Below, one piece after another: positions 996 through 63,457 of a stretch of 64,000 nt of DNA. The stretch comes from Patescibacteria group bacterium (GTDB lineage Bacteria > Patescibacteriota > Saccharimonadia > Saccharimonadales > JAZKJC01). Made by a program: the position numbers and the translations under genes. The notes beneath the pieces were generated by a model. It saw only the letters and a program-made list of their open reading frames with translations, did no database searches and was not told the DNA's origin. How positions within the stretch are numbered: the stretch's first letter is position 1; every line of letters begins with the position of its first letter. The stretch lies in the NCBI GenBank assembly GCA_040384565.1, contig JAZKJC010000023.1:1481-65480 (forward strand), read 5' to 3'.

Positions 996-1444
996 GATAT
1001 ACGTTTCTTTAGTTCGCTCAGTCTAGGTATAAATGATTGGGCGGCAGCTTCTAATCCCAGAACCCTCAGCGCACCAATTAGTACATACAGGCTGTCGAGC
1101 TCACCATCCGTAAGTTGAGATTTTTGTTCGGCGGCCACAAAACTAAACTCAATTTTCTCTACCAGCCATTTTTCTTCGCTTGGTTTGACTTCGTTGGTTT
1201 GGAACTTAGAAGATTCATCAGACTGAACAACTTCTAGGGAGCGGGCTGAATTTTCACGCTTTCGGATATGTCCTCTTTTTATCAAATTATTAACATGCAG
1301 AGCCACAGTCGCAACTGACGTGTAGCTGCAGCCAGCCATGATTTCCCGGTAGCTCGGGCTATAACCATGCTCAGCAATAAAAGCTTCAATAAAGGTCAGT
1401 AGTTCCCGCTGTTTTTTAGTAGGCCGGATGGGATCATTTACCAT
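992..1444 (-). CDS. LexA-type winged-helix DNA-binding protein lacking the S24 peptidase domain
   Basis: N-terminus KKQRELLTFIEAFIAEHGYSPSYREIMAGCSYTSVATVALHVNNLIKRGHIRK matches the LexA DNA-binding domain pattern. The C-terminal 70 aa has no Ser/Lys autocleavage motifs. Confidence 0.6.
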   Translation of the reverse strand: MVNDPIRPTKKQRELLTFIEAFIAEHGYSPSYREIMAGCSYTSVATVALHVNNLIKRGHIRKRENSARSLEVVQSDESSKFQTNEVKPSEEKWLVEKIEFSFVAAEQKSQLTDGELDSLYVLIGALRVLGLEAAAQSFIPRLSELKKRIS

Positions 1445-1473
1445 TGTTCATTTACCATTTTCCAATTATTTGC

Positions 1474-1719
1474 CTATTTTTCATTTTCATAAACTTTGCA
1501 GATTATCAAACTTGGGTTAAGGAGCCGCCCTGCAATAACCTCATCATCTGACCAGCCCTTTACGTCTAAAACTACTTCTGACTCAGCCCGACGTACCGAA
1601 AGTACGCCTCCCTCCTCAGAAGCAATTTTAGCTCGCAAATCATCTGGCCATATTGAGGAGGTTATTGCAGGACGGCTCCTGATGGGTTCTTGTTGTAGTT
1701 GGTTCTGGTAAATGGTCAT
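1474..1719 (-). pseudogene. Degenerate four-helix-bundle cassette: 10 codons of the gene, then hairpin element A
   Basis: The ORF starts MTIYQNQLQQ, as the intact gene at 7742 starts MTIYQTKLQQ. The remaining 'protein' is the translation of an inverted-repeat element, so it is not a credible CDS. Confidence 0.6.
1521..1679 (-). repeat. ORF-less long hairpin element A
   Basis: GGAGCCGCCCTGCAATAACCTC (1521-1542) is the reverse complement of GAGGTTATTGCAGGACGGCTCC (1658-1679) with one mismatch. That mismatch is C.A on the plus strand and G.U on the minus-strand RNA. The interior is imperfectly self-complementary around a CGTAC-CGAAA-GTACG tip. Confidence 0.7.
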
Positions 1720-1757
1720 TGGTAAATAATTGTGAATTGAAAATTGATAAATGTAAA
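1702..1757 (-). repeat. Cassette 5' flank, copy c (about 55 bp repeat family)
   Basis: The reverse complement reads TTTACATTTATCAATTTTCAATTCACAATTATTTACCAATGACCATTTACCAGAAC, near-identical to 6731-6785 and 7704-7758. Confidence 0.85.
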
Positions 1758-2249
1758 CTATGTCCTATAAGCGCTATGGCCATGTGCTCGGTGAGCCACA
1801 ATGCGGGGCACAGTAACAGTTGCATATTTACGCTTAAATTTGTCTGGAAACACCCAAAACTTGTACCACAGGTAATTCCACACCGTGAAGAACCCACTTG
1901 AGATAAATTGGCCAATGTATGGAGTAATACCAATGTTTTTAAGCCAAAGTACCAGGAAGTAATCGATTATAAAGTCTACGATGGTAATTACAGCATAACG
2001 GCCCGTCACCTCAGTCTGATGTTTTTTAAGCTTGGGATTATTAAATACCCAGTAACGCTGTAGTATAAAGTTAACCGTCCAGCCGGCAAGTGTAGAAACT
2101 GATTTCGCCCAGAAAAAACTGCCTTGGAGCCCCTTGTCTATCAGGAAAAACGTTAGATAGCCGGTCCAAAAATACGCTCCGCCACTGATCATATACTCAG
2201 TCATACGTTTAGCTTCTCGTTGTTGTTTTTTTCGTAGATGAAATATCAT
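1758..2249 (-). CDS. GtrA-family membrane protein
   Basis: 163 aa, four hydrophobic segments, GtrA-like WVF motifs (QRYWVFNNP, YKFWVFPDK). Confidence 0.7.
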   Translation of the reverse strand: MIFHLRKKQQREAKRMTEYMISGGAYFWTGYLTFFLIDKGLQGSFFWAKSVSTLAGWTVNFILQRYWVFNNPKLKKHQTEVTGRYAVITIVDFIIDYFLVLWLKNIGITPYIGQFISSGFFTVWNYLWYKFWVFPDKFKRKYATVTVPRIVAHRAHGHSAYRT

Positions 2250-2283
2250 GACGCTATTGCTTTAGCCTAGTATAGCAGTTCTG

Positions 2284-3738
2284 ATGCCTGAGAAGTGTTA
2301 CAATAAATCTAATAATATGAAGAATAATGCCTCACTCGCCTACGCTTTCTTGCTCGTTGTTGGTGATTTTGTGGCTCTTTTAGCAGCTTTTACCGCCGCG
2401 TATATTCTGCGGGTCAAATATGACCCTCGTCCGCTCATAGATCAGATTGCTGCCATTCCATATTTTTACGCCGTTGCCACCGTTCTGCCACTATGGATTC
2501 TGGTCCATGGTTTTATTGGCCTGTATAGCCATAATACCTATGAAAAGCGCTTTTCGGAACTTGGACGCTTACTGGTTGGTTCCATTATTGGCATCCTGGT
2601 AGTTATTGGCTACGATTTTAGCACTGACGCCAAATTATTTCCGGCCCGTCTGGTGCCGGTTTACGGTTTTCTGCTCGGTTTTGGCTTTCTGGTGCTATTT
2701 AGGGCTTTCGCACGACTGGTCCGCCAGTCTCTCTATTCTTACGGAATAGGCGTCAATAATGTGCTGATACTCGGTGACACTGTGGTGAGCAGCGAGATTG
2801 CCAACAGCATTGCCAATACGGTCAAAACAGGCCACCGAGTGGTGGGAATGATTGGGCGGGAGGACAGGGATTTCCGGATATTTGCCAGCTTTGAAGAAGC
2901 CCTGCAGAAACTCAAAAAACCCTTTGACAGTATCATCCAGACAGAGCTGTACCGTGATCAGGAAAAAAACAACACCATACTTCTTTACGCCCAGCAGCAT
3001 CATGTATCATACCGGTTCGTGCCGGGCAACACTGATCTTTTTGTCGGTAATATTACGGTTGAGCTATTTGGCGGATTGCCTATGATAGCCGTTCATCAAA
3101 CTGCCCTAACTGGCTGGGGGCGCATAGCCAAGCGTCTGTTTGATTTTGCGGCCAGTTTAGTGCTAGTTGTTTTGCTTAGTCCGATAATGCTGATTATTGC
3201 CGCCTTAGAGAAGCTAACAGATCCGCGTGGCCCGGTTTTTCTGCGCCAAACTCGCCTAACCCGCTTTAATCGTGAGTTCACTGTTTTCAAGTTCCGTACA
3301 CATAAGTCAGCTATTAGTGGAATTAGTGATAAAGAGGCGTTTGCAAAGCTCGGTAAGCCTGAGCTATATGAAAAGTACAAAGCCAATGGTTACTCGCTCA
3401 AGAATGACCCTCGCATTACCAGACTAGGGCGCTTTCTTAGGGCTTCCAGCCTAGACGAGCTGGCTCAGCTATTTAATGTGCTAAGAGGAGATATCAGCCT
3501 GGTTGGGCCACGTGCTCTTATCCCAACCGAGCTAAACACTTACGAGAAAAAACACGCTATTTTAAGCGTCAAGTCCGGCATGACAGGGCTAGCTCAAATA
3601 TCTGGACGGGAGGATCTTAGCTTCGATGAACGCAGAAGATTAGACGTATATTACGTGCAGAATTGGAGCTTCTGGGGTGACATAGTAATTCTGTTAAAAA
3701 CTTTGCGGGCCGTTCTAAGCGGCGTGGGCGCTAGGTAA
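2284..3738 (+). CDS. Polyprenyl glycosylphosphotransferase (WbaP/EpsL-type initiating sugar transferase)
   Basis: 484 aa; N-terminal TM segments. C-terminal bacterial sugar-transferase domain (KRLFDFAASLVLVVLLSPIML, FKFRT, LDELAQLFNVLRGDISLVGPRA, GMTGLAQISGR). Confidence 0.85.
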   Translation: MPEKCYNKSNNMKNNASLAYAFLLVVGDFVALLAAFTAAYILRVKYDPRPLIDQIAAIPYFYAVATVLPLWILVHGFIGLYSHNTYEKRFSELGRLLVGSIIGILVVIGYDFSTDAKLFPARLVPVYGFLLGFGFLVLFRAFARLVRQSLYSYGIGVNNVLILGDTVVSSEIANSIANTVKTGHRVVGMIGREDRDFRIFASFEEALQKLKKPFDSIIQTELYRDQEKNNTILLYAQQHHVSYRFVPGNTDLFVGNITVELFGGLPMIAVHQTALTGWGRIAKRLFDFAASLVLVVLLSPIMLIIAALEKLTDPRGPVFLRQTRLTRFNREFTVFKFRTHKSAISGISDKEAFAKLGKPELYEKYKANGYSLKNDPRITRLGRFLRASSLDELAQLFNVLRGDISLVGPRALIPTELNTYEKKHAILSVKSGMTGLAQISGREDLSFDERRRLDVYYVQNWSFWGDIVILLKTLRAVLSGVGAR

Positions 3739-4144
3739 GATTGCGGTCTTCCTTAGAATTTTCTGAAAAAACAAACATCTTCAAAATCAGGTAATTCCAC
3801 CCAGCTATAAATATCATAGTTGTTAGCTTACTAAGCATGCCCTCAACACCTAATAACCGTAGATATCCTATTAAGGCGTTACTAAACATAAGGTTAATTG
3901 CTGCCAAGCCGCTATAGAACCCCATCTGGGCTCGCAAACGTAGTCTATATTCTGAGCCCTTATTAAATGCCCACCATCGGTTTAGGCTGAAGCTGACAAC
4001 AAACCCCGCCAAAAAGCTGATTGAGTTGGCAACAATTAATGGCAGGCCTAGCTCTTTATATAAAACGTAAAACAATAGATAATCGGTTGCAGCCGCAGCC
4101 AAGCCAACCCGTAAAAACCTGGATAGAGATTTCCCGTGTCTCAT
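3731..4144 (-). CDS. GtrA-family membrane protein
   Basis: 137 aa; LNRWWAFNK and GWNYLILKMFVF motifs; abuts the GT2 gene. Confidence 0.7.
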   Translation of the reverse strand: MRHGKSLSRFLRVGLAAAATDYLLFYVLYKELGLPLIVANSISFLAGFVVSFSLNRWWAFNKGSEYRLRLRAQMGFYSGLAAINLMFSNALIGYLRLLGVEGMLSKLTTMIFIAGWNYLILKMFVFSENSKEDRNLT

Positions 4145-4145
4145 G

Positions 4146-6692: not shown

Positions 6693-6730
6693 TCATAATA
6701 CCTTAACCAGAAGCTGGAAGCTGAAAATAT

Positions 6731-6785
6731 TTTACATTTACCATTTTTCAGTTCACAATTATTTACCAATGACCATTTACCAAAC
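6731..6785 (+). repeat. Cassette 5' flank, copy a
   Basis: 51/55 identical to 7704-7758. Contains ATG at 6771 opening a truncated ORF MTIYQTKKTS... that stops at 6855, inside the left arm of hairpin B. Confidence 0.85.
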
Positions 6786-6849
6786 TAAAAAAACTTCAAT
6801 AGCACAATTAACTACACTCAATTCACGGCTTTTACAAATGGTAATTATC

Positions 6850-7018
6850 CTATAGCAACCCCAAAACAAAACCTGTCTTTTTTGGGGTGATGGATCAGTG
6901 AGTCAAAAACTTTCATTTCCGACTAAAACATATCTGTTGATACGTTGCAGGAGGAATGGAAGTTTTTGGCCACTGAGGCGCAACCCAAAATGCAGGTTTT
7001 GTTTTGGGGTTACTATAG
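6850..7018. repeat. ORF-less long hairpin element B
   Basis: A 26-nt terminal inverted repeat: CTATAGCAACCCCAAAACAAAACCTG (6850-6875) pairs with CAGGTTTTGTTTTGGGGTTACTATAG (6993-7018). It has one mismatch, which is G.U on the minus-strand RNA. There is a second inner stem (GTGAGTCAAAAACTTTCATTTCC / GGAATGGAAGTTTTTGGCCACTGAG). The element ends 1 nt from the vapC stop codon. Confidence 0.75.
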
Positions 7019-7408
7019 CTACTGACGGGCATCGATCAGCTTAACCCCGGAGTATTTCAGAATATCACTGTCGCCTGTTATGAGCGTCAAATTCTCGCTC
7101 ATAGCCTGGGCAATCAGCATGCGGCCAAACGGATCCCTATGAATTAGTTCTAGTCCCCTCAACCCTTTGGCATGCTCAGCCTGAATAGGCAGCAGAGGTA
7201 ATTTTTGTGCTGTAACCTTTTGCTGAATATCCTCTGCCCCTTTTAGCTTACCAACTGCCAACTTTATCTCAATCTCTACAAAAGCGATAACGGATATAGC
7301 AACCTCTCCCTGTCCCGAATTTGTAAGCATACGTCGAGTGCTATGGCCCAGCTTTGAATCGTTTAGCATAAACCATATGAGTGTATGTGTATCTAATAGG
7401 TACTTCAT
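7019..7408 (-). CDS. vapC: PIN-domain toxin VapC
   Basis: 129 aa; MKYLLDTHTLIW start and C-terminal LITGDSDI are typical of PIN; 4-nt overlap with the antitoxin gene. Confidence 0.85.
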   Translation of the reverse strand: MKYLLDTHTLIWFMLNDSKLGHSTRRMLTNSGQGEVAISVIAFVEIEIKLAVGKLKGAEDIQQKVTAQKLPLLPIQAEHAKGLRGLELIHRDPFGRMLIAQAMSENLTLITGDSDILKYSGVKLIDARQ

Positions 7409-7659
7409 TCTTTAGGCTCAATTGGCCCATAAAAAAGCTCTTCAATTTCTTCATCAGTCCATTCAAAGTTATCAGGAACCTCAATTTCATCTTTCAATGC
7501 ACCAAGCAATGCACTCAGAGGTTTTGTATTATTCGATGGCTTTGTAAGCTCCGCTACCGGAGTGCCGCGGTTAGTTATAACCACACGCTCACCCTCGGCT
7601 ACTTTGGCAAGCAGCTTGGATAAGTTAGTTTTAGCATCGTGTACATTAGCTGTAATCAT
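7405..7659 (-). CDS. Phd/YefM-type antitoxin
   Basis: 84 aa; HDAKTNLSKLLAKVAEGERVVITNRGTPVAEL matches the Phd/YefM N-terminal pattern. Confidence 0.75.
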   Translation of the reverse strand: MITANVHDAKTNLSKLLAKVAEGERVVITNRGTPVAELTKPSNNTKPLSALLGALKDEIEVPDNFEWTDEEIEELFYGPIEPKE

Positions 7660-7703
7660 AATGTCATTATAGCTAACTTAGCTAAGTATGTCAATATAAA
7701 AAT

Positions 7704-7758
7704 TTTACATTTATCATTTTTCAATTCACAATTACTTATCAATGACCATTTACCAAAC
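7704..7758 (+). repeat. Cassette 5' flank, copy b
   Basis: TTTACATTTATCATTTTTCAATTCACAATTACTTATCAATGACCATTTACCAAAC; includes the start codon of the gene at 7742. Confidence 0.85.
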
Positions 7759-8104
7759 CAAACTACAGCAGCTTGAGCAGCGAACAATCAATTTTAGTGT
7801 CAATATCATAAAAACGTGTGGGAAATATTCGGGCGATGTTACTTTACGTTCACTCATTGATCAGTTAGTACGTGCTTCTACTAGTATTGGGGCTAATTAC
7901 GCGGAGGCAAACAATGCTAGCTCAAAGGCAGATTTCAAAAACAAAATATTCATCGCCAAGAAAGAAGCAGCCGAAACTCGCTACTGGCTAAGAGTATTAT
8001 CAGAACTGCTACCAAACGAGGATTTTAACGAATTATCCCAAGAAGCTCTAGAGCTTAACTTAATTCTACAAAAGATCGTAACTACAATGAACGCAGGCAA
8101 ATAA
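7742..8104 (+). CDS. Four-helix-bundle protein (23S rRNA intervening-sequence protein / Avd-like family)
   Basis: 120 aa; family hallmarks QLVRASTSIGANYAEANNASSKADFKNKIFIAKKEAAETRYWLRVL. Confidence 0.85.
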   Translation: MTIYQTKLQQLEQRTINFSVNIIKTCGKYSGDVTLRSLIDQLVRASTSIGANYAEANNASSKADFKNKIFIAKKEAAETRYWLRVLSELLPNEDFNELSQEALELNLILQKIVTTMNAGK

Positions 8105-8128
8105 TGTTCTCTATTTGGTAAATTTGAA

Positions 8129-9262
8129 ATGGCAAATAATTTGGTAAATCGGCTAATGGTAAATGGTAAATCTTTAAAGGTCGCTCTAGTCTGTGACTGG
8201 TTAACTGGCATTGGTGGCGCGGAGCGGGTTTTGCTGGAACTGCACAAAATGTTTCCAGAAGCCCCAATCTACACCTCCCAATACAACCCCAAAAAAATCG
8301 ATTGGTTCAACGAAGCCGATGTGCGTACTTCGTGGCTACAAAAGCTACCCGTAAGCCTCAAGAAATTTTTGCCCGTATTACGCTTTTGGTACTTCTGGCG
8401 GCTGGACTTGAGCGAGTACGACTTGGTCATATCGGAGACTGGAGCCGAAGCCAAGGCGATCAAATTTGGCTCCTCCACTACTCACATATGCGTCTGTAAC
8501 GCACCGACACATTATTACTGGAGCCGTTACGATGATTATATGAAGCACCCAGGCTTTGGCCCACTTGATCCCCTGGCTCGCCTGGGCCTGCGTTTACTAG
8601 CAGGCCCCTTACGTCGCTGGGACAAAAAAGCCGCTCAGCGCCCAACGCACCTGGTCGCTATTTCTACCCACATCCAAACCGAAATCCAGAAATACTATGG
8701 CCGGGAATCTGCCGTTATCCATCCTCCAGTAGACATAGAACGCTTCCAGCTAACAGCTACCAGCCATGAGCTACCAGCTAAGCGAGGCTTCGCAACCGCA
8801 GGCCGTCAAACCCCCTACAAACGCATAGATTTAGCCGTAGCTGCTTGCACGGAGCTAGAACTGCCACTCACAGTCATAGGGGACGGTCCGGAACACGCCA
8901 AACTTGTTAAAATGGCCGGCCCCACCATCACATTTGTCACTAGTGCTACGGACGAGCAAGTTGCCCAGCATTTCGCCTCCGCCAATGCTTTCATTTTCCC
9001 CGGCCTAGACGATTTTGGAATCGTTGCCGTAGAAGCTTTGGCCGCTGGCACTCCCGTAATAGCTTATCAAGCTGGTGGCGTATTGGATTACCTGGTTGAT
9101 GGAGAAACTGGCGCATTTTTCAGCAAACAAAGTTCGAGGAGCCTTATGCAAGCACTACATAACTTCAACCCAACAAAATATGATTCTGAAAAAATCAAAC
9201 AACATGCCCAAAAATTTTCAGCAGAACAGTTTAGGAATAATTTTGAAAAATTGATTAAGTAA
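8129..9262 (+). CDS. Family-4 (GT-B) glycosyltransferase
   Basis: 377 aa; C-terminal EDFGIVAVEALAAGTPVIA motif. The true start is probably ATG 8156 (MVNGKSLKV), because 8129-8155 is cassette flank low-complexity sequence. Confidence 0.8.
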   Translation: MANNLVNRLMVNGKSLKVALVCDWLTGIGGAERVLLELHKMFPEAPIYTSQYNPKKIDWFNEADVRTSWLQKLPVSLKKFLPVLRFWYFWRLDLSEYDLVISETGAEAKAIKFGSSTTHICVCNAPTHYYWSRYDDYMKHPGFGPLDPLARLGLRLLAGPLRRWDKKAAQRPTHLVAISTHIQTEIQKYYGRESAVIHPPVDIERFQLTATSHELPAKRGFATAGRQTPYKRIDLAVAACTELELPLTVIGDGPEHAKLVKMAGPTITFVTSATDEQVAQHFASANAFIFPGLDDFGIVAVEALAAGTPVIAYQAGGVLDYLVDGETGAFFSKQSSRSLMQALHNFNPTKYDSEKIKQHAQKFSAEQFRNNFEKLIK

Positions 9263-10028: not shown

Positions 10029-10040
10029 TCTACTCCTCGT

Positions 10041-11252
10041 CTATTTTTTAAATCGTTTGCTACTCTCCGACTCGGCGCTGCCACCAACAAAAGCTAGAAA
10101 TCTCTCTGGAGTTATCAGTTCCCACTCAACTTGATCGCCATAATTTGCCAGCCATTCCTTTGGAGCCAAAACCGCTTTTTTGGTGTTCCATTTCATTTCA
10201 TAACCAAAATACTTTCCGTCACGCTCCTCCACCAGATCAATCTCGCTGCCTTTCCAGGTTCGCCAAAAGTACTGGTTGGCGTGCGGGCCATAATATGATC
10301 TTTTTTTAAGTCGCTCCACAACCGCGAAATTTTCCCATAACTGCCCAATATCATTTCTTATTTCTAGAGGGTTGAAGTTGCCAATTACCGCATTACGCAC
10401 ACCGAGATCATAGAAATAGTATTTAGGCTTTCGCGTGACCTCGCTACGCATATTACGGCTTAACCCTCCAAGCCTGAATATAATAAACGCTTTTTCCAAC
10501 AGATCCAGGTAACGCTCAACTGTTTTACGGTCTATCCTCAAATTGCCTCCAATCTCGGTAGCCGAAACTTCACCCCCAACCTGATATGCCAACAAATTTA
10601 GTAGCTGCAATAATATTCTAGAGCCTTTGACTTGTTGGAATTCCAAAATATCTTTTAGCAAATACGAATCTACCAATTCCTGCAAAAACTCCCGCTTTTG
10701 ATCATCGTTTTTGGCAGTAACTGATGAGGGGTACATTCCATAAACCAGTAGATTCGGTAGCGCTTTTGATAAGTCATGCTCGGGTGTACGGCTCTCTCCA
10801 ACTAGCTCACTAACGCTCATTGGCAAAATATAACTTGTCCGCTTACGGCCCGTCAATGGCTCACCTATCTGTCCGGATAGCTCAAAAGCAGATGAGCCCG
10901 TCACTACAACCGTGACCTCTGGCATAACATCTACAAGTAACTTCAGGCTACGCCCAATATTGGGTATCATCTGGGCTTCATCGATAATCAAAACCTGGTT
11001 ATCCCCAACCAGCTTGCGCAAATTATCGGTTTCAGTGTAGGCAAAGTCATTTTGCACACTCAGACTATCCCCAACGTAGTGGACGAATTTGGTCTTTGTG
11101 GTCGCCATAAAGCTTTTTAGTAGAGTAGTCTTGCCGCTACGCCTGGGTCCAAGCAGCACCAAGGCCTTGCCTGGCATTAGTTCTTTTTCGATATCAATAT
11201 ATCTTTGTAGCTGCATAGGCAACATCTTAGCACGAATGCCTCCAAATTGCAA
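10041..11252 (-). CDS. AAA ATPase with DUF4143-like C-terminal region
   Basis: 403 aa; Walker A GPRRSGKTTLL, Walker B VLIIDEAQ; the real start is probably an internal Met (MLPMQLQRY). Confidence 0.7.
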   Translation of the reverse strand: MQFGGIRAKMLPMQLQRYIDIEKELMPGKALVLLGPRRSGKTTLLKSFMATTKTKFVHYVGDSLSVQNDFAYTETDNLRKLVGDNQVLIIDEAQMIPNIGRSLKLLVDVMPEVTVVVTGSSAFELSGQIGEPLTGRKRTSYILPMSVSELVGESRTPEHDLSKALPNLLVYGMYPSSVTAKNDDQKREFLQELVDSYLLKDILEFQQVKGSRILLQLLNLLAYQVGGEVSATEIGGNLRIDRKTVERYLDLLEKAFIIFRLGGLSRNMRSEVTRKPKYYFYDLGVRNAVIGNFNPLEIRNDIGQLWENFAVVERLKKRSYYGPHANQYFWRTWKGSEIDLVEERDGKYFGYEMKWNTKKAVLAPKEWLANYGDQVEWELITPERFLAFVGGSAESESSKRFKK

Positions 11253-46480: not shown

Positions 46481-46599
46481 GTAGTCTAATAGTCGCTAGT
46501 CATATAGTCCAACTTCTTAGTCAAATAGCTGGCCAAGAACTATAGAGTCCTTGGCTTTAGACCAGACAATCAGACCATTAGACAATTTGACAATTCTGA
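46481..46599. repeat. Cargo-less cassette-flank remnant in the rpmH-rnpA spacer
   Basis: GTAGTCTAATAGTCGCTAGTCATATAGTCC resembles the left flank at 49907 (GTAGTCCAATAGTAGGATAGCC..TAGTCC). GACCATTAGACA lies on the other side as an imperfect inverted partner. Confidence 0.45.
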
Positions 46600-47108: not shown

Positions 47109-48479
47109 GTGCAAGAGGACCTGTGGCAAGCGGTCTTGGGTGAAATAGAGCTCACAGTTTCTAGGGGCAGTTTTGTCACGTGGTTTAAGAACACTCACTT
47201 AGTTCGCCAAAAGGACAATGTGCTAGTTATTGGCGTTCCCAATGTTTTCATCAAACAACAGATGGAACGCAAGTATAACGACTTAGTCCTGGAAACACTT
47301 GCCAAGAATGGGGTTAAGCCAGAACGAGTTGAATATAAGATCCACGCGGGGATATCGCCACGGAAAACTGAGGAAGAACCAATGATTTTGGGCGCCCAAG
47401 CTAAAACTCAGTCCGATTATCAGGCGTCCAATCAGTTGACTGATGCTCTTGCCCACAGTTATCGCCAAGGACTAAACGAACGCTACACTTTTGACACGTT
47501 CATTGTAGGCTCTGGTAATGAGTTGGCTTATGCCGCCTGCCAAGCTATTGCCCAAAGTCCTGGTACCAAATATAACCCAATGTTCGTTTATGGTGGCGTA
47601 GGGATTGGCAAGACTCATCTAATACAAGCTGTTGGCAACGCGATTTTAGCCAAAAACCCAGCTGCCCGCATTGTCTACGCGTCGACTGAGCAGTTTGTCC
47701 AAGAGTTCGTGGATGCGCTCAGGTTTAAAAAAACGACTGATTTTGCCAAGCACTATCGCAGCGCCGATGTGCTCATTGTTGATGATATGCAGTTCATTGC
47801 TGGCAAAGAAAAAATGCAGGAAGAGTTCTTCCACACCTTTAATGCTTTGCATCAAGCCAACAAACAAATTATTATCAGCAGCGATAAGCAACCTAAAGAA
47901 ATTCCAACCCTGGAAGAGCGATTACGATCACGCTTTGCTTGGGGTATGACCATTGATATGCAGAACCCAGACTTTGAAACACGCTGCGCTATTATTCAAA
48001 CCAAGGCCCAAAATCATGACGTTGTCTTGCCTCAACCGGTGGTGGAGTACCTTTCTAACCTTGTACAATCCAACATCCGCGAGCTGGAGGGCGCACTTAA
48101 CCAGCTGCTAGCTTTCTGTGAAATGCGCTCACTCGCCCCTGATCTCCATTTAGCCATGAGCTTGCTTGGTAATAGTAAGGCTCGGCCTAAGCACATCAGC
48201 GCTAAACAGATAATTGAGCGAACAGCCAAGTATTTTCAGCTACCGATGGAAGATATATTAGGCCCTAAGCGAGACAAAGACATTGTGGTACCACGCCAAA
48301 TAGCTATGTACATATTACGTAGCGAGCTGCACCTTAGTTTCCCTAAAATCGCCAGAGAACTGGGCCGCAAAGACCATACCACAGCCATACACTCGGTTGA
48401 GAAAATCGAAAAAGAATCCGGATATGATATTGACATCAAAGCCGCAATAACCGAAATTAAAGAGCGACTTTATGCATAG
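47109..48479 (+). CDS. dnaA: Chromosomal replication initiator DnaA
   Basis: 456 aa, GTG start; Walker A GGVGIGKTHL, Walker B VLIVDDMQF, C-terminal DNA-binding HTTAIHSVEKI. Confidence 0.95.
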   Translation: MQEDLWQAVLGEIELTVSRGSFVTWFKNTHLVRQKDNVLVIGVPNVFIKQQMERKYNDLVLETLAKNGVKPERVEYKIHAGISPRKTEEEPMILGAQAKTQSDYQASNQLTDALAHSYRQGLNERYTFDTFIVGSGNELAYAACQAIAQSPGTKYNPMFVYGGVGIGKTHLIQAVGNAILAKNPAARIVYASTEQFVQEFVDALRFKKTTDFAKHYRSADVLIVDDMQFIAGKEKMQEEFFHTFNALHQANKQIIISSDKQPKEIPTLEERLRSRFAWGMTIDMQNPDFETRCAIIQTKAQNHDVVLPQPVVEYLSNLVQSNIRELEGALNQLLAFCEMRSLAPDLHLAMSLLGNSKARPKHISAKQIIERTAKYFQLPMEDILGPKRDKDIVVPRQIAMYILRSELHLSFPKIARELGRKDHTTAIHSVEKIEKESGYDIDIKAAITEIKERLYA

Positions 48480-48801
48480 AAAAGCAGCGAGCAATGAGCA
48501 GCGAGCAATGAGCAGCGAAAATACTTTAATGGCGCTTATTTTGGTTTTTGGTGTTTGTGCAGATCGTGTTCACATTGTTGGTAAAGCATTTGTACAAACT
48601 GTGTACATCTGCAGTGGTTATGCTCAGGTAGTTTTTGCAACAAAGGTATTGTGTACAAAGCCGGGCATTGTGCGCAGCTTGTCCGAGCGGCTAGCACAGG
48701 CTTTTACACACGTAAATTTGGCATTTAACAGGTTTGTGTTGGTAGTTATACACATTGTCCCCAGCCCTAATAATGATTACTACAAAGGAGTTTAATATAT
48801 T
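48480..48801. promoter_or_regulatory. dnaA-dnaN spacer, candidate oriC module
   Basis: TTATACACA at 48746-48754 and TTTTACACA at 48702-48710. TGTGTACAA at 48650-48658 is the reverse complement of TTGTACACA. An AT-rich tract precedes dnaN. Tandem AGCAGCGAGCAATG x2 lies at 48484-48511. Confidence 0.6.
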
Positions 48802-49893
48802 ATGAAATTACAGGTCACCCAGGAAAATCTCCACAAAGCACTTAGTAGTGTTGGCCGAGTTGCAAGTGGTAAGGGTACTTTACCGATTCTATCCAACCTT
48901 TTAATTAAAACTATCGGCAATCGACTAAGTGTCGCAGCCACAAATCTAGACATAGCAATTACTCATTTTATTGGTTCTAAGGTTAGTGATGAGGGGGCAA
49001 TCACAGTGCCAGCAAGGCTCATGGTTGATTTTGTTGCTAGCCTGCCCTCTGGGACAATTACGCTCGAACTTGATGAGACTAAATTAAAAATCACAACCGA
49101 CCAGTACGAATCAATTATTAACGGCACCAACGCGGAAGAATATCCGGTGATGCCAACAATTGCTGACGGCACCAACTGGACTGTACCGTCAAATGTGCTT
49201 AGAGCTGGGCTACAACAAGGCTTAATAGCAGCTTCGTCGGACGAGAGCCGACCAGTATTAACAGGCGTATACATGCACACACACGATAAAAAGCTTTTTC
49301 TTGTAGCTACTGACAGCTATCGATTAGCAGAAAAAACCCTTATGAAAGCCTCGGAAGATGTAAATTTATTGATTCCAGCCGGTGCATTACAGGATTTGCT
49401 AAGAATACTTACGGATGTTGAAGATGAGGTTCAGGTTACCCATAACGATCAACAAGTACTTTTTCGGGTTGGTGATGTTGAACTTGTAGCCAGGTTAATT
49501 GAGGGGAACTACCCTGATTATCGTAAGCTTATCCCAAAAACATTTGCCCATAACGCAATCCTAAAAAAGCAAGAATTTATGAACATCACAAAGGTTTCTA
49601 GCTTGTTTGCACGTGAGAGCGCTGGTAGCGTAACAATCCACTTAGACAAAGCAAAGCAGTTGGTTAGTATTAGATCAATTGCCTCGCAACTGGGCGAAAA
49701 CACCGCTTCCGCTAATGCCGTGATAGAGGGAGAGGGCGTAATTACGCTTAATTCACGCTACATCATGGATGCTTTACATGCGCTGAATGGTGACGAAGTA
49801 AAAATAGCCTTTAACGGTAAGCTAGAAGCTTGTCTACTTACCAGCCCCAAACACACAGACTACCTCCATGTAATCATGCCCCTCAAAAGCTAG
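48802..49893 (+). CDS. dnaN: DNA polymerase III beta sliding clamp
   Basis: 363 aa; three-domain clamp pattern (ATDSYRLA, EGNYPDYRKLIP), position after dnaA. Confidence 0.9.
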   Translation: MKLQVTQENLHKALSSVGRVASGKGTLPILSNLLIKTIGNRLSVAATNLDIAITHFIGSKVSDEGAITVPARLMVDFVASLPSGTITLELDETKLKITTDQYESIINGTNAEEYPVMPTIADGTNWTVPSNVLRAGLQQGLIAASSDESRPVLTGVYMHTHDKKLFLVATDSYRLAEKTLMKASEDVNLLIPAGALQDLLRILTDVEDEVQVTHNDQQVLFRVGDVELVARLIEGNYPDYRKLIPKTFAHNAILKKQEFMNITKVSSLFARESAGSVTIHLDKAKQLVSIRSIASQLGENTASANAVIEGEGVITLNSRYIMDALHALNGDEVKIAFNGKLEACLLTSPKHTDYLHVIMPLKS

Positions 49894-49936
49894 CTTTTGA
49901 ATCCGGGTAGTCCAATAGTAGGATAGCCTGATAGTC

Positions 49937-50109
49937 CTTAGAGCCTGACCCATTCCCCCTGTTCAAAGGGAAAACACCAGCAGGCAGGGAGTTTTTAGCG
50001 GTTTTTTGGCTAAAAGCATACCTAAACGGTATGGTTTTAGTTGAAAAAATGGTAAAAAGCCCTGGACCTGGTGTTTTAGCCGGACGGGGGGAATGGGTCA
50101 GGCTCTTAG
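49937..50109. repeat. ORF-less long hairpin element C
   Basis: A 23-nt terminal inverted repeat: CTTAGAGCCTGACCCATTCCCCC (49937-49959) pairs with GGGGGAATGGGTCAGGCTCTTAG (50087-50109), with one mismatch. An internal loop of about 10x9 nt follows. An imperfect inner stem of about 50 bp (AAACACCAG/CTGGTGTTT, GCATACC/GGTATGG) closes on loop TAAAC. Confidence 0.75.
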
Positions 50110-50124
50110 GGGGCGTGAGATAAT

Positions 50125-50475
50125 GTGCGTATGACGATAAAAAAGTTTGAGGATATAATTGCTTGGCAAAAAGTCAGAGAACTTAATAAAGAGTTAAATT
50201 ACTCATTTGTAGATTTGAGAAATTTTACTTTTAAGGATCAAATTCTGCGCGCCGGTCTATCAATTAACAATAATATCGCAGAAGGTTTTGAAAGAAGTGG
50301 GGATAAAGAACTTAAATATTTTCTGCATGTTGCCCGAGGTTCTGCCGCAGAGGTTCGGTCTATGCTTTATATGGCTTTGGATATGAAGTACATAGAAGAA
50401 GCCCGCTTCCAGGAACTTTACGGCCTTACAGTGGAGGTTGGTCGCTTGATTACGGGTTTTATAAAGAAGTTATGA
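50125..50475 (+). CDS. Four-helix-bundle protein (23S rRNA IVS protein / Avd-like family)
   Basis: 116 aa (likely ATG at 50131: MTIKKFEDIIAWQK). Shows the AWQKVRELNKEL, INNNIAEGFERSGDKE and ARGSAAEVRSMLY hallmarks. Confidence 0.85.
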   Translation: MRMTIKKFEDIIAWQKVRELNKELNYSFVDLRNFTFKDQILRAGLSINNNIAEGFERSGDKELKYFLHVARGSAAEVRSMLYMALDMKYIEEARFQELYGLTVEVGRLITGFIKKL

Positions 50476-50514
50476 CAATCCAACTATCCGACAATAAGAC
50501 TATTGGACTAAACC

Positions 50515-57129: not shown

Positions 57130-57147
57130 TTTATTTCCTCTTTGTGA

Positions 57148-59067: not shown

Positions 59068-59086
59068 TGGTTAACCCCAATGAGTT

Positions 59087-59150
59087 CAAATCCGAAATCT
59101 GAAATCAGAAAACCGAAACAAATCCGAAATCTGAAATCAGAAAACCGAAA
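59087..59150. repeat. 2 x 32-bp tandem repeat (3' flank of cassette)
   Basis: CAAATCCGAAATCTGAAATCAGAAAACCGAAA occurs twice in perfect tandem. Confidence 0.9.
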
Positions 59151-59152
59151 CA

Positions 59153-59554
59153 TTACGCCGTGCTCCTAAGGATGGCGCCAAGAATTTTCATGATTTCAGT
59201 AGCTTCATTCAAGAGCTTCTGTTGAGCGGCTATGAACTCCGGTGGAGCAACCATAACTTCCAGCCACCAAATTGTTTCCCTAGCTTCTTTCTTTGCGATT
59301 TTTATACGCATAGCAAAGTCTTTCTTGCTAAGTGATTCATTAGCCTCAAGATAATTCGCGCCAACAGAACCCGAAGAACGAACCACTTGTTTCCCATCTT
59401 CTATGAATGCTGTTGTCTTAGGCAGCTTACTCACAAAAGAACGAACATCACGCGCAAATAATAACGCACGATCCTCCAGGTCAAACCGTTTCTGATTTCG
59501 TGCTTCGAGTTTCGTATTTGTTTCTGATTTCGTGCTTCGAGTTTCGTATTTCAT
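59153..59554 (-). CDS. Four-helix-bundle protein (23S rRNA IVS protein / Avd-like family)
   Basis: 133 aa; FDLEDRALLFARDV, SSGSVGANYLEANESLSKKDF, KKEARETIWWLEV. The first 22 aa are encoded by flank repeats. The start overlaps the upstream stop as TAATG. Confidence 0.85.
   Translation of the reverse strand: MKYETRSTKSETNTKLEARNQKRFDLEDRALLFARDVRSFVSKLPKTTAFIEDGKQVVRSSGSVGANYLEANESLSKKDFAMRIKIAKKEARETIWWLEVMVAPPEFIAAQQKLLNEATEIMKILGAILRSTA
59488..59551. repeat. 2 x 32-bp tandem repeat (5' flank of cassette, inside its N-terminal codons)
   Basis: GTTTCTGATTTCGTGCTTCGAGTTTCGTATTT occurs twice. It is an imperfect inverted counterpart of 59087-59150, sharing TTTCTGATTTC / GAAATCAGAAA. Confidence 0.9.
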
Positions 59555-60516: not shown

Positions 60517-60838
60517 CTTTATTCTTTTCCCACCTAAGAAAGTTATAATTACATCTTATTATATCAAGACAGTGAGTTAAGTGCACAGAATAGCCCATTT
60601 ATTAATTTTCAATTTTCAATTTTTCAATTTTCAATCAAGGATCAATGACTCAAATAATCCAAAAATTCGACCTGGAGGAACGGACGGCTCGTTTCGGGGA
60701 AGACGTCATTAAACTTTGTCGAACCATTAAGCAAGATGCTATTACCCGTAGTTTGGTTGATCAAGTCATACGATCGGCGACAAGTATAGGAGCTAACTAT
60801 ATGGAAGCCAATGGCGCGAGTTCTAAAAAGGATTTTCG

Positions 60839-61932
60839 AGGTTATAGGAACTTTCGTGGAGGTTTTGGCTCCTCCGTTCGGCTGTAAAGATACCACTCAA
60901 CCAGCCGTCTTTGGTGTTCTTCGCTCATGCCCCGATGTAGCTTGAGCTTGGTTCTGAGCTGGGAGTTAATACCACCCTCTACATAGTTAGTAGTTCTGGG
61001 GATTGGTTCGGTAGTTAGCGCAGTATCCAGGTAAGTGAATAATTGGTTAGTTTGCACTAGTTTCTCCAGTTGTTTGTAGGCTGAGCGTAAGCCCCTATGG
61101 GTATACCACCAGCGTCTATGACCGCTGGTTGGACTGGCAAAGTAGGTTCGCTCCCGGATGAAGCTACCGTATTGTTCCTGCCATGCCTGGAGACGTTGTT
61201 GCCACTCCAGCGATTGTTGGCTGGTCTTGACCTGCCACAAATCTCTGGTGAGTTGGAGTAGCTCCTGTCCAGCAATGGTTTGCGGATGGAGCGTGAGCTT
61301 AACCCGGATGTTCTGCCAGACATGAAACACACAACGCTGAATCCTGGTCTTTGGCCAGCACCGAACAATAGCCAGCAGGACACCTTTCTGGCCATCACAA
61401 ACGATCACTAAGGGAGCTGGCAGCCTCCCAAGCAGCAGCGACCAGGTATTCCCAGATTCCCAACCGACCCACTGCCAGGCGATAACAGCAGTTGGGGTGC
61501 GGGCTATGAGGCAGACCATACTACCAACTCGGATACCGTCAATGAGGATGATGGGGTATAGCTCACCCGTAACCTCAGGCTTTGGAGCAATCTCCCAGCA
61601 CCAGGCTGTCTGAGACCGCCAGGCGCGGTCAGTTACGCCATGGCCGAGTTCGGTCTGCGATTGTTTACCTAGCAACCAGGATACGAAGCGTTCTAGTACA
61701 AATGCCTGGCTTAAGTCAGCTCGTGGCTTGGTAGCACTGCTGGTGCAGCGCGGGCAATACCATCGTTGAGTGCCAGCAGCCGTTAAGCCACGTTTTTGTA
61801 GTTTCTTGCTGCACGTGGGACAGGCATACTTATAGGCTCTTTTTTCATACCATTAATGTCTCACGACATTAATTAAACACAAATAACAGAGGGGAATTGG
61901 TTAAAAAACCTCCACGAAATTTCCGATTAGCC
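60839..61932 (-). mobile_element. IS element (IS256/Mutator-like transposase) with 8-bp target duplication
   Basis: 1094 bp. Direct repeat GATTTTCG lies at 60831-60838 and 61933-61940. The terminal inverted repeats of about 28 bp are imperfect (..GGAACTTTCGTGGAGGTTTT / AAAACCTCCACGAAATTTCC..). Confidence 0.8.
60842..61848 (-). CDS. DDE transposase (IS256/Mutator-like), N-terminal Zn-ribbon out of frame at an A6 run
   Basis: The main ORF carries VCDGQKGVLLAIVRCWPKTRIQRCVFHVWQN and TTNYVEGGINSQLR. Upstream, the same frame encodes YACPTCSKKL...WYCPRCT. The only ATG (61848) is one frame off, across AAAAAAG (61840-61845). Confidence 0.65.
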
Positions 61933-62167
61933 GATTTTCGTAACAAAGCACATATCTGCAAAAAAGAAGCTCAGGAAACCCAGCACTGGCTCCGTATGCT
62001 AAGTGCCGCTGTACCAGAACATAAAGACGCATTACGCGTCCTGTGGCAAGAGGACCATGAATTCGTACTAATCTTCCAGAAAATAATTTCGAGTTTGAAA
62101 CAATGAAAAATGGTATTTGAATGAAAATTGATAATTGTAAATTGGAAATTCCTTTGCGCTAACTCAC

Positions 62168-62191
62168 AAGCTAATAGCTGATGGCGTATAG
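62168..62191 (+). repeat. Cassette-flank word, copy 1 (AAGCTAATAGCTGATGGCGTATAG)
   Basis: Direct repeat of 62896-62926 (AAGCTAATAGCTTGTAGCTGATGGCTTATAG). The pair brackets the PIN/RHH module. Confidence 0.7.
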
Positions 62192-62197
62192 TTCTAA

Positions 62198-62611
62198 TTA
62201 GGCCTGGTTGGGGGCTACAGTTTGCAGTAGCGGGACATGATTGAAGTGCCTATCGTTGGTTGCCAAAGTGCAAGTGTATTGTAGGCTCAAGGTTGCGATC
62301 CAGAGGTCATTCGTAGGTATTGGAGTACCCTTAAGAGCCAATTCTGCCCAAAGTCGGGCGTATATTTCTAACGTTTCATGGTTTGGGAATAGAACGGTTA
62401 CTCTTTCTGAAGCTAGAAAAGCATCTAGTTTCGCATAATTTTTAGTCATACGATTGCCTTTTTGAAAGCCAGCCCTTAGCTCGGCTACCACAATAAAAGG
62501 CATCAATATCTCACAACCACCAACCACCATTTCTTTAAGTTTGGTTGCTTTGCCCTCTATGAATTTATCGTATGAGTTAGTGTCAATGCTAACTCTTAAA
62601 TCGTTGGCCAT
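62198..62611 (-). CDS. PIN-domain toxin (VapC-like)
   Basis: 137 aa; SIDTNSY, VVAELRAG, TNDLWIA, LATNDRHF acidic/PIN motifs; overlaps the antitoxin gene. Confidence 0.8.
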   Translation of the reverse strand: MANDLRVSIDTNSYDKFIEGKATKLKEMVVGGCEILMPFIVVAELRAGFQKGNRMTKNYAKLDAFLASERVTVLFPNHETLEIYARLWAELALKGTPIPTNDLWIATLSLQYTCTLATNDRHFNHVPLLQTVAPNQA

Positions 62612-62853
62612 AGCTCTTTGTCAATCTTGTGTTGGGCATCGAACGCCTTTCGTTCCTCGGTGCCAATACCGCCACTGCCATAAAACCAATCAAGGTCGTT
62701 ATAAGTCTTGTTTTTTTCTGCTTGGCCTGTGGCCTGCTGTAGCACTTCCACTATTGTCGCGTTAAAGCTTTGCCCCTGTTTCCGGGCACGCCGGCGCAAA
62801 ACCTTATCAACGGGCTCCGGAATATTACGAATGGTATATTGTATACTACTCAT
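62596..62853 (-). CDS. Ribbon-helix-helix antitoxin (VapB/FitA-like)
   Basis: The likely start is MSSIQYTIRNIPEPVDKVLRRRARKQGQSFNATIVEVL (the track ORF extends to 62892). The beta-strand plus two helices pattern fits RHH. Confidence 0.65.
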   Translation of the reverse strand: MSSIQYTIRNIPEPVDKVLRRRARKQGQSFNATIVEVLQQATGQAEKNKTYNDLDWFYGSGGIGTEERKAFDAQHKIDKELWPTI

Positions 62854-62895
62854 GTAGGCAGTATACATAATATGTATGCATAAGTCAAGCAAAAG

Positions 62896-62926
62896 AAGCT
62901 AATAGCTTGTAGCTGATGGCTTATAG
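62896..62926 (+). repeat. Cassette-flank word, copy 2
   Basis: See 62168-62191. It is followed by a 17-codon four-helix-bundle gene stub. Confidence 0.7.
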
Positions 62927-62943
62927 CAGTTAAAATAGAGGCA

Positions 62944-62997
62944 ATGGCGACAAACTCATTTAAAGACTTGTTTGTATGGCAAAAGTCCAGCCACTAA
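62944..62997 (+). pseudogene. N-terminal stub of a four-helix-bundle gene
   Basis: My translation is MATNSFKDLFVWQKSSH*. FKDL.VWQK is the family N-terminal signature. Confidence 0.6.
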
Positions 62998-63045
62998 GCA
63001 GTGCGTGTTGAGAGGTGAGCGGTGAGATAGGAAGAGAAAGGGCTA

Positions 63046-63423
63046 GTGCGGTACAATTGGCTTATGAAAGGACACTCATTTCGGGATATTATTGCGTGGC
63101 AAAAAGCGCATAGCCTTTGTGTCGATATTTATAAAATTTTAGCCAGTAATAAAGATTTTTCTTACAGGGATCAAATACAGCGTGCGGCTGTATCCATAAT
63201 GAATAATATTGCCGAAGGACATTCCAGAAGGAGCGACAAATCGTTCCGAAACCTTCTGCTCATAGCTAAGGGTTCGGCCGCAGAAGTTGAATCTATGCTT
63301 GAACTTGGGAAAAGCTTGGGGTACTTCACCTCAATTCAACACGAAGACCTCACCCAAAGAGTTGACGAAATTTCTCGTCTAATAACTGGCCTGGTTAAAT
63401 TCCTAGAAACCCGCCAGCCCTAG
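63046..63423 (+). CDS. Four-helix-bundle protein (23S rRNA IVS protein / Avd-like family)
   Basis: 125 aa; FRDIIAWQKAHSL, IMNNIAEGHSRRSDKSF, AKGSAAEVESML. Flanked by TGAGAGGTGAG (63009-63019) and CTCATCTCTCA (63442-63452). Confidence 0.85.
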   Translation: MRYNWLMKGHSFRDIIAWQKAHSLCVDIYKILASNKDFSYRDQIQRAAVSIMNNIAEGHSRRSDKSFRNLLLIAKGSAAEVESMLELGKSLGYFTSIQHEDLTQRVDEISRLITGLVKFLETRQP

Positions 63424-63457
63424 TTTTTTCATCTCTCACAACTCATCTCTCATGGCT

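Follow-up and report, generated by a model that had tools for sequence, protein, structure and literature searches.

Four-helix-bundle genes enclosed by inverted word arrays resemble rRNA intervening sequences and occupy spacers between protein-coding genes

Introduction

We show that a 64,000-nucleotide stretch of a Patescibacteria genome (Saccharimonadales; assembly GCA_040384565.1, contig JAZKJC010000023.1, positions 1,481 to 65,480; hereafter the window, numbered from its first letter) carries five genes of the four-helix-bundle (4HB) family, each lying between two arrays of short tandem words that are reverse complements of one another. This architecture is specific to the 4HB family and recurs in metagenomes, its arms have a strand polarity, it runs in the direction of the neighbouring genes, and it is polymorphic for presence and absence at orthologous spacers, some of which are hot spots. 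Its design is like that of the intervening sequence (IVS) in the 23S rRNA of Coxiella burnetii. In the explanation we favour, to which we give about an even chance of being right, these are IVS-type guest cassettes of operon spacers that are transcribed with the host genes, closed by pairing of their arms and processed by RNase III. The IVS as a kind of element is already known; what is new is the presence of IVS-type elements in mRNA spacers between ordinary genes. The classic rRNA IVS would seem to be a particular instance of a cassette that is widespread and inserts at such places.

What is seen in the window holds far beyond it and connects three phenomena that are poorly understood. IVSs that bear an open reading frame (ORF) have been known in rRNA since 1993, and their origin, their mobility and the role of their ORF have gone without explanation. 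Genes annotated "four helix bundle protein" (TIGR02436) number in the thousands and have no function attached to them, and catalogues of intergenic heptamer repeats, which go back 30 years, likewise offer no explanation. An earlier reading of the window, made from the letters alone and called here the sequence-only reading, had proposed a dense family of cassettes and suspected that they had not been described before; we found no such description in the searchable literature, and the open-access full texts yielded nothing that links 4HB/S23p genes outside rRNA to flanking inverted repeats.

Results

The window spans the origin region of its host (rpmH-rnpA-yidC and dnaA-dnaN-recF), and its dnaN has its closest relatives in metagenome-assembled genomes of Candidatus Saccharibacteria (TM7), at 66-85% identity. 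The five 4HB genes called by the sequence-only reading are real: all of them pass the curated cut-offs of PF05635 (37-113 bits; cut-off 33.8) and TIGR02436 (47-111 bits; cut-off 24) over ~105 residues, and the database entry identical to one of the encoded proteins is annotated "four helix bundle protein". Genes 1, 3 and 4 (Table 1) belong to one subfamily, A, and genes 2 and 5 to another, B. Since identity is 14-22% between the subfamilies and 42% between the two subfamily-B copies, the five copies represent separate lineages of long standing rather than the outcome of a recent burst. By sequence similarity, the closest structures solved are 2RLD for gene 1 and 2GSC (XCC0516) for gene 5, each of which was deposited with five chains, and XCC0516 has been described as a homopentameric toroid (PMC4990558). 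The window proteins are mildly basic, with an isoelectric point of ~9. Gene 4 is interrupted by an insertion sequence (IS) of the Mutator/IS256 type (60844-61927), which has its transposase on the minus strand, 23-nucleotide (nt) terminal inverted repeats (TIRs; 60844-60866 and 61905-61927) and an 8-bp duplication, GATTTTCG.

The contexts previously assigned to the cassettes, namely dnaN-recF, a VirB4/TraG-like type IV secretion system (T4SS) cluster and rpmH-rnpA, are correct; within the T4SS cluster, gene 3 lies between the gene of a VirB4-like ATPase and the ORF of 320 amino acids (aa) upstream of that gene. The proposed density of roughly one cassette per 7 kb also holds for the window, where we count about one per 7-13 kb, ~10-16 times the density in related genomes (11 4HB genes in 1.27 Mb). 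An Rfam scan of the window returned no family match and a tRNA search of it no tRNA, while the Rfam scan of 11 related loci gave two tRNAs and nothing else, with no rRNA among the matches. A PADLOC search for defence-system models gave no match.

Each word pair quoted in the sequence-only reading was found where it had been placed and proved to be the core of a longer arm, 24-32 nt long and 71-90% complementary to its partner. The arms are degenerate tandem arrays with a period of 7-8 nt, as identified by Tandem Repeats Finder. With arm regions chosen by hand, and Smith-Waterman complementarity compared with that of 500 dinucleotide-preserving shuffles, the observed value was reached by at most two of the 500 shuffles for each of the five copies. 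RNA duplex energies of the arms range from -26 to -45 kcal/mol and are better than those of shuffles. When RNAduplex was run on fixed 105/93-nt flanks, the shuffle energies were very large, and the arms of two copies lay outside these flanks, because of a nested hairpin in one and because an arm falls within the annotated ORF in the other. The minimum-free-energy fold of the entire dnaN-recF spacer has a terminal stem that closes cassette 2. The 175-nt hairpin nested in this cassette has 27-nt outer arms at 93% and further nested pairing; it has no Rfam match, and its terminal 19-mer occurs a single time in the window.

The idea that the words are particular to each copy stands for the window, where the arms of the five copies differ, but does not extend to the 5′ arm of the gene-1 (7742) lineage, which is a conserved promoter-like segment (TTTACA, 17 nt, CACAAT, 9 nt, ATG). 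About 55 nt of this arm are conserved at three window sites and in loci L162, L169 and L171, and the 3′ arrays of the lineage vary (GGTAAAT, GGCAAAT, GGAAAAT).

The arm architecture is a property of the 4HB family at large. An alignment of mixed subfamilies was too divergent for a metagenome scan, and we therefore used a subfamily-B alignment, which found 80 loci of 26-61% GC; these loci accordingly sample subfamily B only, and for subfamily A we relied on a single homologue search and the look-up of four contigs. By eye, nearly all 80 loci have a word array just before the ATG and reverse-complement words just after the stop codon or overlapping it. For the 83 cassettes in which both flanks were available, taken with fixed 110-nt flanks, the median arm-complementarity score is 35, against 16.8 for shuffles and 16 in direct orientation, and in 55 of the 83 the observed score was not reached by any of 100 shuffles. 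Scores of at least 25 are found at 71% of the 4HB genes and at 0.6-2.2% of ~1,400 non-4HB ORFs from the same loci. Complementarity is moreover highest between the two arms of one cassette: cognate 5′ and 3′ arms score 34.1 on average and non-cognate ones 22.1 (the maximum of 5,000 permutations was 25.9), and the cognate arm ranks first in 17 of 83 cases, where about one would be expected by chance. The advantage persists inside the commonest word type, AAAGT/ACTTT (41.0 vs 33.9), whose core words are spaced 7-9 nt apart in runs of typically two to five and in which the first 3′ word often takes in the last codons and the stop (...AAA ACT TTA TAA). In the Saccharibacteria loci, arrays number ~1.5 per kb within 200 nt of 4HB genes and 0.06 per kb elsewhere, a ~25-fold difference.

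Flank complementarity, the comparison set in advance, is thus far above both shuffled and non-cognate controls. That there is no cassette at all, and that AT-rich, low-complexity slippage repeats have come to be inverted by chance, is an explanation we consider extremely improbable. Heptameric intergenic repeats are indeed common in some genomes irrespective of 4HB genes (PMC4692102, PMC4679880), and arrays occupy most spacers of some metagenome loci; however, none of the controls (dinucleotide shuffles, direct orientation, non-cognate arms and other genes) gives the signal, and the enrichment next to 4HB genes stands against a Saccharibacteria background of 0.06 per kb. On these four controls, we reject chance low complexity.

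Homologues with complementary words also occur in named genomes, two of them within cas operons (Table 1), and a Calothrix 4HB copy has no arms. A GC-rich 4HB homologue on plasmid 1 of Gemmatirosa kalamazoonensis (L177, ~1070-1600) carries direct CTGCCCTC-type arrays on both sides.

The cassettes are oriented with respect to their surroundings. Of 62 upstream neighbours, 59 are on the cassette's strand, as are 50 of 60 downstream ones, with a median gap to the neighbour of ~60 nt, roughly the length of an array. Over 60 nt, a purine-rich sense strand precedes the ATG in 74 of 82 cassettes, and a pyrimidine-rich one follows the stop in 56 of 77. Because co-orientation and arm polarity are strand-specific, a role in the transcript fits them better than a symmetric function of DNA ends, and they support a transcript-level role indirectly. 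No cassette that we examined lies in rRNA, and each of the 80 metagenome cassettes is flanked, on one side or both, by a protein-coding ORF no more than ~125 nt away.

The presence/absence polymorphism anticipated by the sequence-only reading exists at the orthologous dnaN-recF and virB4 spacers. The dnaN-recF spacer measures 12-45 nt in ~60 of 80 relatives, including the whole clade around the window, where the empty spacer is ~20 nt long (TAAnnnnnTACAATAnnnnn-ATG). It measures 624 nt in the window and 396-517 nt in eight relatives, in which it holds a subfamily-B 4HB gene. The words in the occupied spacers are of three or four types: ATAGT is found in the window and L069, AAAGT in L028, L033 and L055/L063, and AGCTGATAG in L039 and L041. 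The occupied genomes are scattered on a dnaN+recF tree, and the same word type appears in distant host clades. The window dnaN ends like those of its close relatives and unlike that of L069, which argues that the cassette was acquired and not the region. This spacer is a hot spot, as it accounts for 8 of the 11 4HB genes that were found in the relatives (1.27 Mb); L083 and L091 from the metagenome set apparently represent dnaN-recF spacers too, as judged by the adjacent coding ends. In the window the virB4 junction is 486 nt long and holds a subfamily-A gene that L028 also carries at this place; most of the 49 relatives in which it was measured have a junction of -7 to +28 nt, and among the five closest, four have 5-11 nt. 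Sites that are empty in the closest relatives, where they measure 5-28 nt, and hold related cassettes in more distant ones therefore amount to insertion polymorphism with hot spots. Of four homologues of the gene-1 lineage looked up, three immediately precede a GT4 glycosyltransferase gene and the fourth is found in another context.

[quoted passage not shown] The presence/absence polymorphism with its clean empty sites, and the repeated entry into one spacer, would all be expected of such an element, and cassette-1 arms do occur at three window sites with different contents. The spectrum of arm mismatches is symmetric between strands; the same spacers also harbour palindromic inserts, among them empty inverted arrays of hairpin-like form; and the view of IVSs as mobile elements or remnants of transposition is an old one (cited in PMC4990558). 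Nevertheless, the arms differ between cassettes of one genome, which puts their recognition beyond any one transposase; neither the cassettes nor their surroundings encode a recombinase, and catalytic activity is not known for the four-helix-bundle fold. The dnaN-recF junctions show no target-site duplication, and symmetric ends leave the strong orientation bias and the purine/pyrimidine polarity unexplained. We regard DNA-level ends as an unlikely account of the arms but retain them as a rival reading.

The dnaN-recF spacer shows further variation. In L034, L050, L061, L072, L040, L036, L048 and L080, it lies at ~11090-11230 of 21-kb loci and contains inserts of 64-137 nt, some with long hairpins (a perfect one in L072 and a related set in L034/L050/L061), and hairpin inserts of 90-137 nt are present in several relatives; the L048 spacer holds "empty" complementary arrays, GAGTAGTGA and TCACTACTC, with no gene, and that of L064 an unrelated ORF of ~120 aa. 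Where the spacer is occupied by a cassette, the dnaN stop codon is followed by 8-10 nt that repeat the final 8-10 nt of the gene in inverted orientation, which makes a hairpin with the stop codon in its loop (window 49883-49900, L028, L033, L055, L069, L044 and L091). This inverted copy follows the host's own dnaN, in six sequences with one G.U pair (L091), and is absent from empty spacers. As a general boundary of cassettes, a stop-codon hairpin was rejected, being present in 9 of 55 cassettes of the metagenome set and in 11% of controls.

The window also contains incomplete cassettes, for which the sequence-only reading had listed five candidates. At 62944-62997, we find a plausible N-terminal 4HB stub preceded by a solo 5′ array, whose word type is shared with the L039/L041 cassettes, and 6731-6855 repeats the cassette-1 5′ arm and continues into a stump. 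The segment at 1440-1760, by contrast, is not a 4HB remnant: cassette-1 arms are present there, and what they enclose is an 81-aa ORF (1474-1719) that has no family match, together with a nested inverted repeat. The segment at 46481-46599 consists of word arrays alone with weak complementarity; it is possibly an emptied cassette, although the evidence is weak. The rpmH-rnpA spacer in which it lies measures 123 nt in the window, 29-32 nt in the two closest measurable relatives and 16-138 nt overall. The last candidate, 48484-48511, is a tandem 14-mer that nothing ties to the cassettes.

Other features of the window and of related loci were recorded in passing. A PIN/RHH toxin-antitoxin pair (62198-62892) is flanked by direct AGCTAATAGCTGATGGC-type arrays (62168-62192 and 62896-62927) and looks like an insertion in a decayed cassette's 5′ array, and a second pair, PIN/Phd (7019-7659), adjoins cassette 1. 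A 107-aa ORF with no family match (48472-48795) fills the dnaA-dnaN spacer and opens with 2.6 copies of AGCAGCGAGCAATG (48483-48518); this spacer is 240-420 nt long in all relatives, and the ORF is weakly conserved (3/80). At E values up to 5, Pfam gave no match for this ORF, for the 81-aa ORF at 1474 or for two further neighbouring ORFs. A Y1 (IS200/RAYT-like) transposase gene (PF01797; 43877-44566) has palindromic inverted repeats of its own at its flanks, CTACTGTACAAGGTTGAACCTTGTAC, unrelated to the word arrays, and the same transposase type occurs in relatives (L004, 5116-5730; L039, 5336-5950). Tandem repeats of 126 nt (2.5-3.5 copies, 76-80% matches) at 25269-25613 and 27516-28045 lie inside two adjacent large minus-strand ORFs (25076-27367 and 27428-29632) and presumably encode repeated protein domains. 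In loci L106, L120, L122, L136, L145 and L089, arrays of period 7-8 stand in almost every intergenic spacer; such loci often have "empty" inverted array pairs 20-100 nt apart (for example L106, 5487-5574, and L120, 107-177), and L089 has three 4HB genes with direct arrays of more than 20 words between them.

Table 1. Coordinates of 4HB genes, their arms and related features. Fractions give the number of shuffles that reached the observed complementarity.
Feature	Sequence	Coordinates	Strand	Description
Shell with cassette-1 arms	window	1425..1762	-	5′ arm 1700-1762, 3′ array 1430-1472; 1/500
Remnant	window	6731..6855	+	28-codon stump (ATG 6769, TAG ending 6855)
Cassette 1, 5′ arm	window	7706..7765	+	promoter-like, entering first codons, ATGACCATTTACCAAAC; ATTTACC-type heptamers; best pair 7730-7757 / 8114-8141; 2/500
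4HB gene 1	window	7742..8104	+	subfamily A, 120 aa; PF05635 72 bits, TIGR02436 89.5 bits
Cassette 1, 3′ arm	window	8113..8171	+	(TGGTAAA)n array; overlaps annotated glycosyltransferase ORF start at 8129
Word arrays, no gene between	window	46481..46599	-	rpmH-rnpA spacer; weak complementarity, 34/500
Cassette 2, 5′ arm	window	49908..49935	+	TAGTCCAATAGTAGGATAGCCTGATAGT; dnaN-recF spacer; best pair 49908-49935 / 50483-50510; 1/500
Nested hairpin element	window	49936..50110	+	175 nt, nearly perfect; between cassette-2 5′ arm and ORF
4HB gene 2	window	50125..50475	+	subfamily B; likely start ATG 50131; PF05635 95.7 bits
Cassette 2, 3′ arm	window	50483..50510	+	ACTATCCGACAATAAGACTATTGGACTA; ends 4 nt before recF start
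Cassette 3, 3′ arm (gene sense)	window	59087..59150	-	two 32-nt units of ~7-nt words; best pair 59088-59111 / 59489-59512, inside two 32-nt units per side; 0/500
4HB gene 3	window	59153..59554	-	subfamily A; family match from residue 28
Cassette 3, 5′ arm	window	59488..59551	-	two 32-nt units within N-terminal 22 codons of annotated ORF
Cassette 4, 5′ arm	window	60604..60638	+	(AATTTTC)n array; best pair 60607-60638 / 62117-62148; 0/500
4HB gene 4	window	60645..62106	+	subfamily A; split after codon 65 into 60645-60841 + 61930-62106
Cassette 4, 3′ arm	window	62117..62150	+	(TGAAAAT)n array
Solo 5′ array and 4HB stub	window	62896..62997	+	array AAGCTAATAGCTTGTAGCTGATGGCTTATAGC (62896-62927), then 17-codon N-terminal stub MATNSFKDLFVWQKSSH*
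Cassette 5, 5′ arm	window	63009..63035	+	(TGAGAGG)n array; best pair 63009-63033 / 63429-63452; 1/500
4HB gene 5	window	63046..63423	+	subfamily B; likely start ATG 63064; PF05635 112.8 bits
Cassette 5, 3′ arm	window	63429..63452	+	TCATCTCTCA, two copies
4HB cassette	Anabaena sp. 90 (L173, pANA02)	1201-1569		between cas6 and cas4 (type I-D); GGTGACA / TGTCACC
4HB cassette	Nostoc sp. ATCC 53789			between hypothetical-protein genes; GGGAAAA / CCCTTTT
4HB cassette	Picosynechococcus PCC 7003 (L178)	1201-1557		between cas10 and cmr3 (type III-B); GGAGATA / TATCTCC
4HB cassette	Riemerella anatipestifer			after iron-sulfur cluster assembly gene; GGTTTAA / AACCTTA

Discussion

In the explanation we favour, the cassette is a 4HB (S23p/IVP, Avd-like) gene of ~115-125 codons between two word arrays with a period of 7-9 nt, of which the 5′ array would end at or in the start codon and the 3′ array, its reverse complement, would begin at or in the stop codon. 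The cassette would insert in the direction of transcription into very short spacers, some of which would be hit repeatedly, and would be transcribed as part of the host operon RNA. The arrays could then pair into a long, imperfect duplex that tolerates shifts of register and closes off the insert, as happens in ORF-bearing 23S IVSs. Cutting of this duplex by RNase III would free the host RNA of the insert and release the cassette RNA, and would thereby make the insertion tolerable. Slippage and arm-to-arm conversion may keep the tandem-word arms matched, which would account for words that differ between lineages and yet are complementary within a cassette.

The kinship with ORF-bearing 23S rRNA IVSs that the sequence-only reading had drawn is supported by the shared protein family and the shared architecture. 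As in the IVSs of Leptospira, C. burnetii, Xanthomonas and Brucella, a PF05635/TIGR02436 ORF stands in the sense of the host transcript, complementary termini close the element, and tandem words of about seven nucleotides (period 7-8 in the window arrays) lie directly upstream of the start codon; the distribution is likewise sporadic, with empty sites and evidence of horizontal transfer, and the size is ~430-760 nt. The C. burnetii IVS is a 428-nt element with an S23p ORF, terminal inverted repeats that form a 28-bp stem, and two to three tandem GACAGAT heptamers directly upstream of the ATG, the number of which varies by strain (Warrier et al. 2016, PMC4990558). RNase III cuts its stem at the start of the first repeat, as demonstrated in vitro with RNA ends determined by rapid amplification of cDNA ends, and its protein appears not to be made (PMC4990558). 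In contrast to 23S IVSs, which occupy helix 25 or 45 of the rRNA, the cassettes described here lie in spacers between protein-coding genes, their stems are less perfect, and five different lineages are found within 64 kb.

Several of our observations weigh against transcribed, paired and processed arms. No significant arm match was present within the fixed 110-nt flanks in 24 of the 83 cassettes; the arrays of L089, L154 and Gemmatirosa are direct rather than inverted; and the window stems are imperfect, with complementarity as low as 71% over 24-32 nt. The cassettes are phylogenetically related, and our counts overstate the number of independent events. The gene-1 lineage stands at the same site in several genomes, and not every copy is demonstrably mobile. 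Additionally, if transcription starts at the promoter-like 5′ arm of subfamily A, most of that arm would be absent from the RNA. One core word, AAAGT/ACTTT, is shared by 45 of the 83 cassettes in genomes of 26-49% GC, a dominance that suggests sequence-specific recognition or constraint, or else shared descent, and not a freely drifting stem. Finally, the arm mismatches show no excess of wobble pairs: G.U-type mismatches on the sense strand number 93 and A.C-type mismatches 92, transversions being the commonest class (259), and no bias between G.U and A.C appeared under three scoring schemes. These data therefore give no proof of selection for pairing in the sense RNA and do not establish the claim of the sequence-only reading that an RNA stem is under selection. 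Inverted duplication or conversion of recent date, at the level of DNA, would produce an identical mismatch pattern, and the lack of wobble bias together with the dominant core word fits either arms that evolve in concert as DNA or a protein that recognises the word.

The second of these possibilities can be stated more fully. The word arrays might be binding sites for a protein, most attractively the encoded, putatively pentameric 4HB protein itself, acting as a ring in the manner of TRAP or Hfq; by binding the 5′ array next to the start codon, as RNA or DNA, it would regulate its own gene or the neighbouring ones, with the 3′ array serving as a further site or an anti-site, and complementarity would be a by-product of having the same word on both sides. 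The persistence of the AAAGT core across deep protein divergence, with its spacing of 7-9 nt and its runs of typically two to five words, is what such a model would predict, as is the presence in one genome of cassette lineages with different words, which would represent separate specificities. The five chains of 2GSC and 2RLD, the toroid formed by XCC0516, the mildly basic proteins and a mismatch spectrum free of RNA wobble bias point in the same direction, and work on Nostoc heptamer repeats has postulated a binding protein, as yet unidentified (bioRxiv 10.1101/2022.06.06.494920). Independent binding sites, however, do not require a mirrored word order, nor a cognate match that extends beyond the core even among AAAGT-type cassettes. 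Moreover, the Coxiella arms are demonstrably a substrate of RNase III in an element whose protein is apparently not made (PMC4990558), and empty inverted arrays with no gene between them exist. Taking these points together, we think it improbable that the arrays are primarily protein-binding sites but retain this as a rival reading, and we continue to prefer an IVS-type cassette processed from the operon transcript.

The arms also bear comparison with intergenic heptamer repeats, which include the cyanobacterial short tandemly repeated repetitive (STRR) sequences, GGGAATC in Xanthomonas, GGGGAYT and TTTTGAA/TTCAAAA in Nostoc and TAACTGA in Beggiatoaceae. Like the cassette arms, these are tandem words of ~7 nt that are intergenic, often placed at start codons, often arranged as inverted pairs and variable in copy number; unlike them, the cassette arrays are specifically paired around one gene family. 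In Xanthomonas, the GGGAATC heptamer forms 70-75 convergent inverted pairs per genome, to which no function has been assigned (PMC4692102, PMC4679880). The texts on heptamer repeats that we searched make no mention of S23p/4HB genes (PMC4692102, PMC4679880, bioRxiv 10.1101/2022.06.06.494920).

Three further identities were considered and rejected. The 4HB proteins share a homologous four-helix-bundle fold with Avd, the accessory protein of diversity-generating retroelements, which is pentameric and basic and works with nucleic acid; they are not Avd, as scores against DivGenRetAVD (17.9; cut-off 80) and bAvd (17-20; cut-off 40) fall far short, and no reverse transcriptase was found among the scanned ORFs next to cassettes. 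With MITEs, repetitive extragenic palindromes (REP/REPIN) and integron cassettes, the 4HB cassettes have in common a small size, inverted repeats, an intergenic position, presence/absence polymorphism and a gene with a structured boundary. In contrast to MITEs and REPINs, the cassette arms are tandem word arrays that differ between copies and share no terminal sequence. We discarded a MITE or IS identity on the differing arms of the five copies, the lack of a duplication at the dnaN-recF junctions and the lack of a cognate transposase, the transposases found in the window being the unrelated IS256-type enzyme in copy 4 and the Y1 enzyme with its own palindromic flanks. The attC of an integron cassette lies at one end, whereas the structure here spans the gene, and no integrase is associated with it.

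A broader proposal, which we put forward tentatively and consider doubtful, is that a 4HB gene with inverted arms constitutes a pan-bacterial mobile intercistronic element of which rRNA IVSs fill one niche and heptamer repeats are the solo arms or emptied shells, and that the pentameric ring reads the word of each lineage and so controls the processing, translation or spread of the cassette and of its neighbours, such as recF, cas and T4SS genes. If IVSs, TIGR02436 genes and heptamer repeats were indeed one element, the IVS would become a general cassette of operon spacers, with examples at dnaN-recF in the replication origin region, among T4SS genes and in cas operons. The presence of 4HB cassettes within cas operons may explain why "23S rRNA IVP" appears among CRISPR-associated genes in a figure legend of a large association survey (PMC10910872). 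Such an element would also predict RNase III-dependent cutting of many polycistronic mRNAs, and its putative pentameric ring protein would be a concrete candidate for the factor that binds heptamer repeats.

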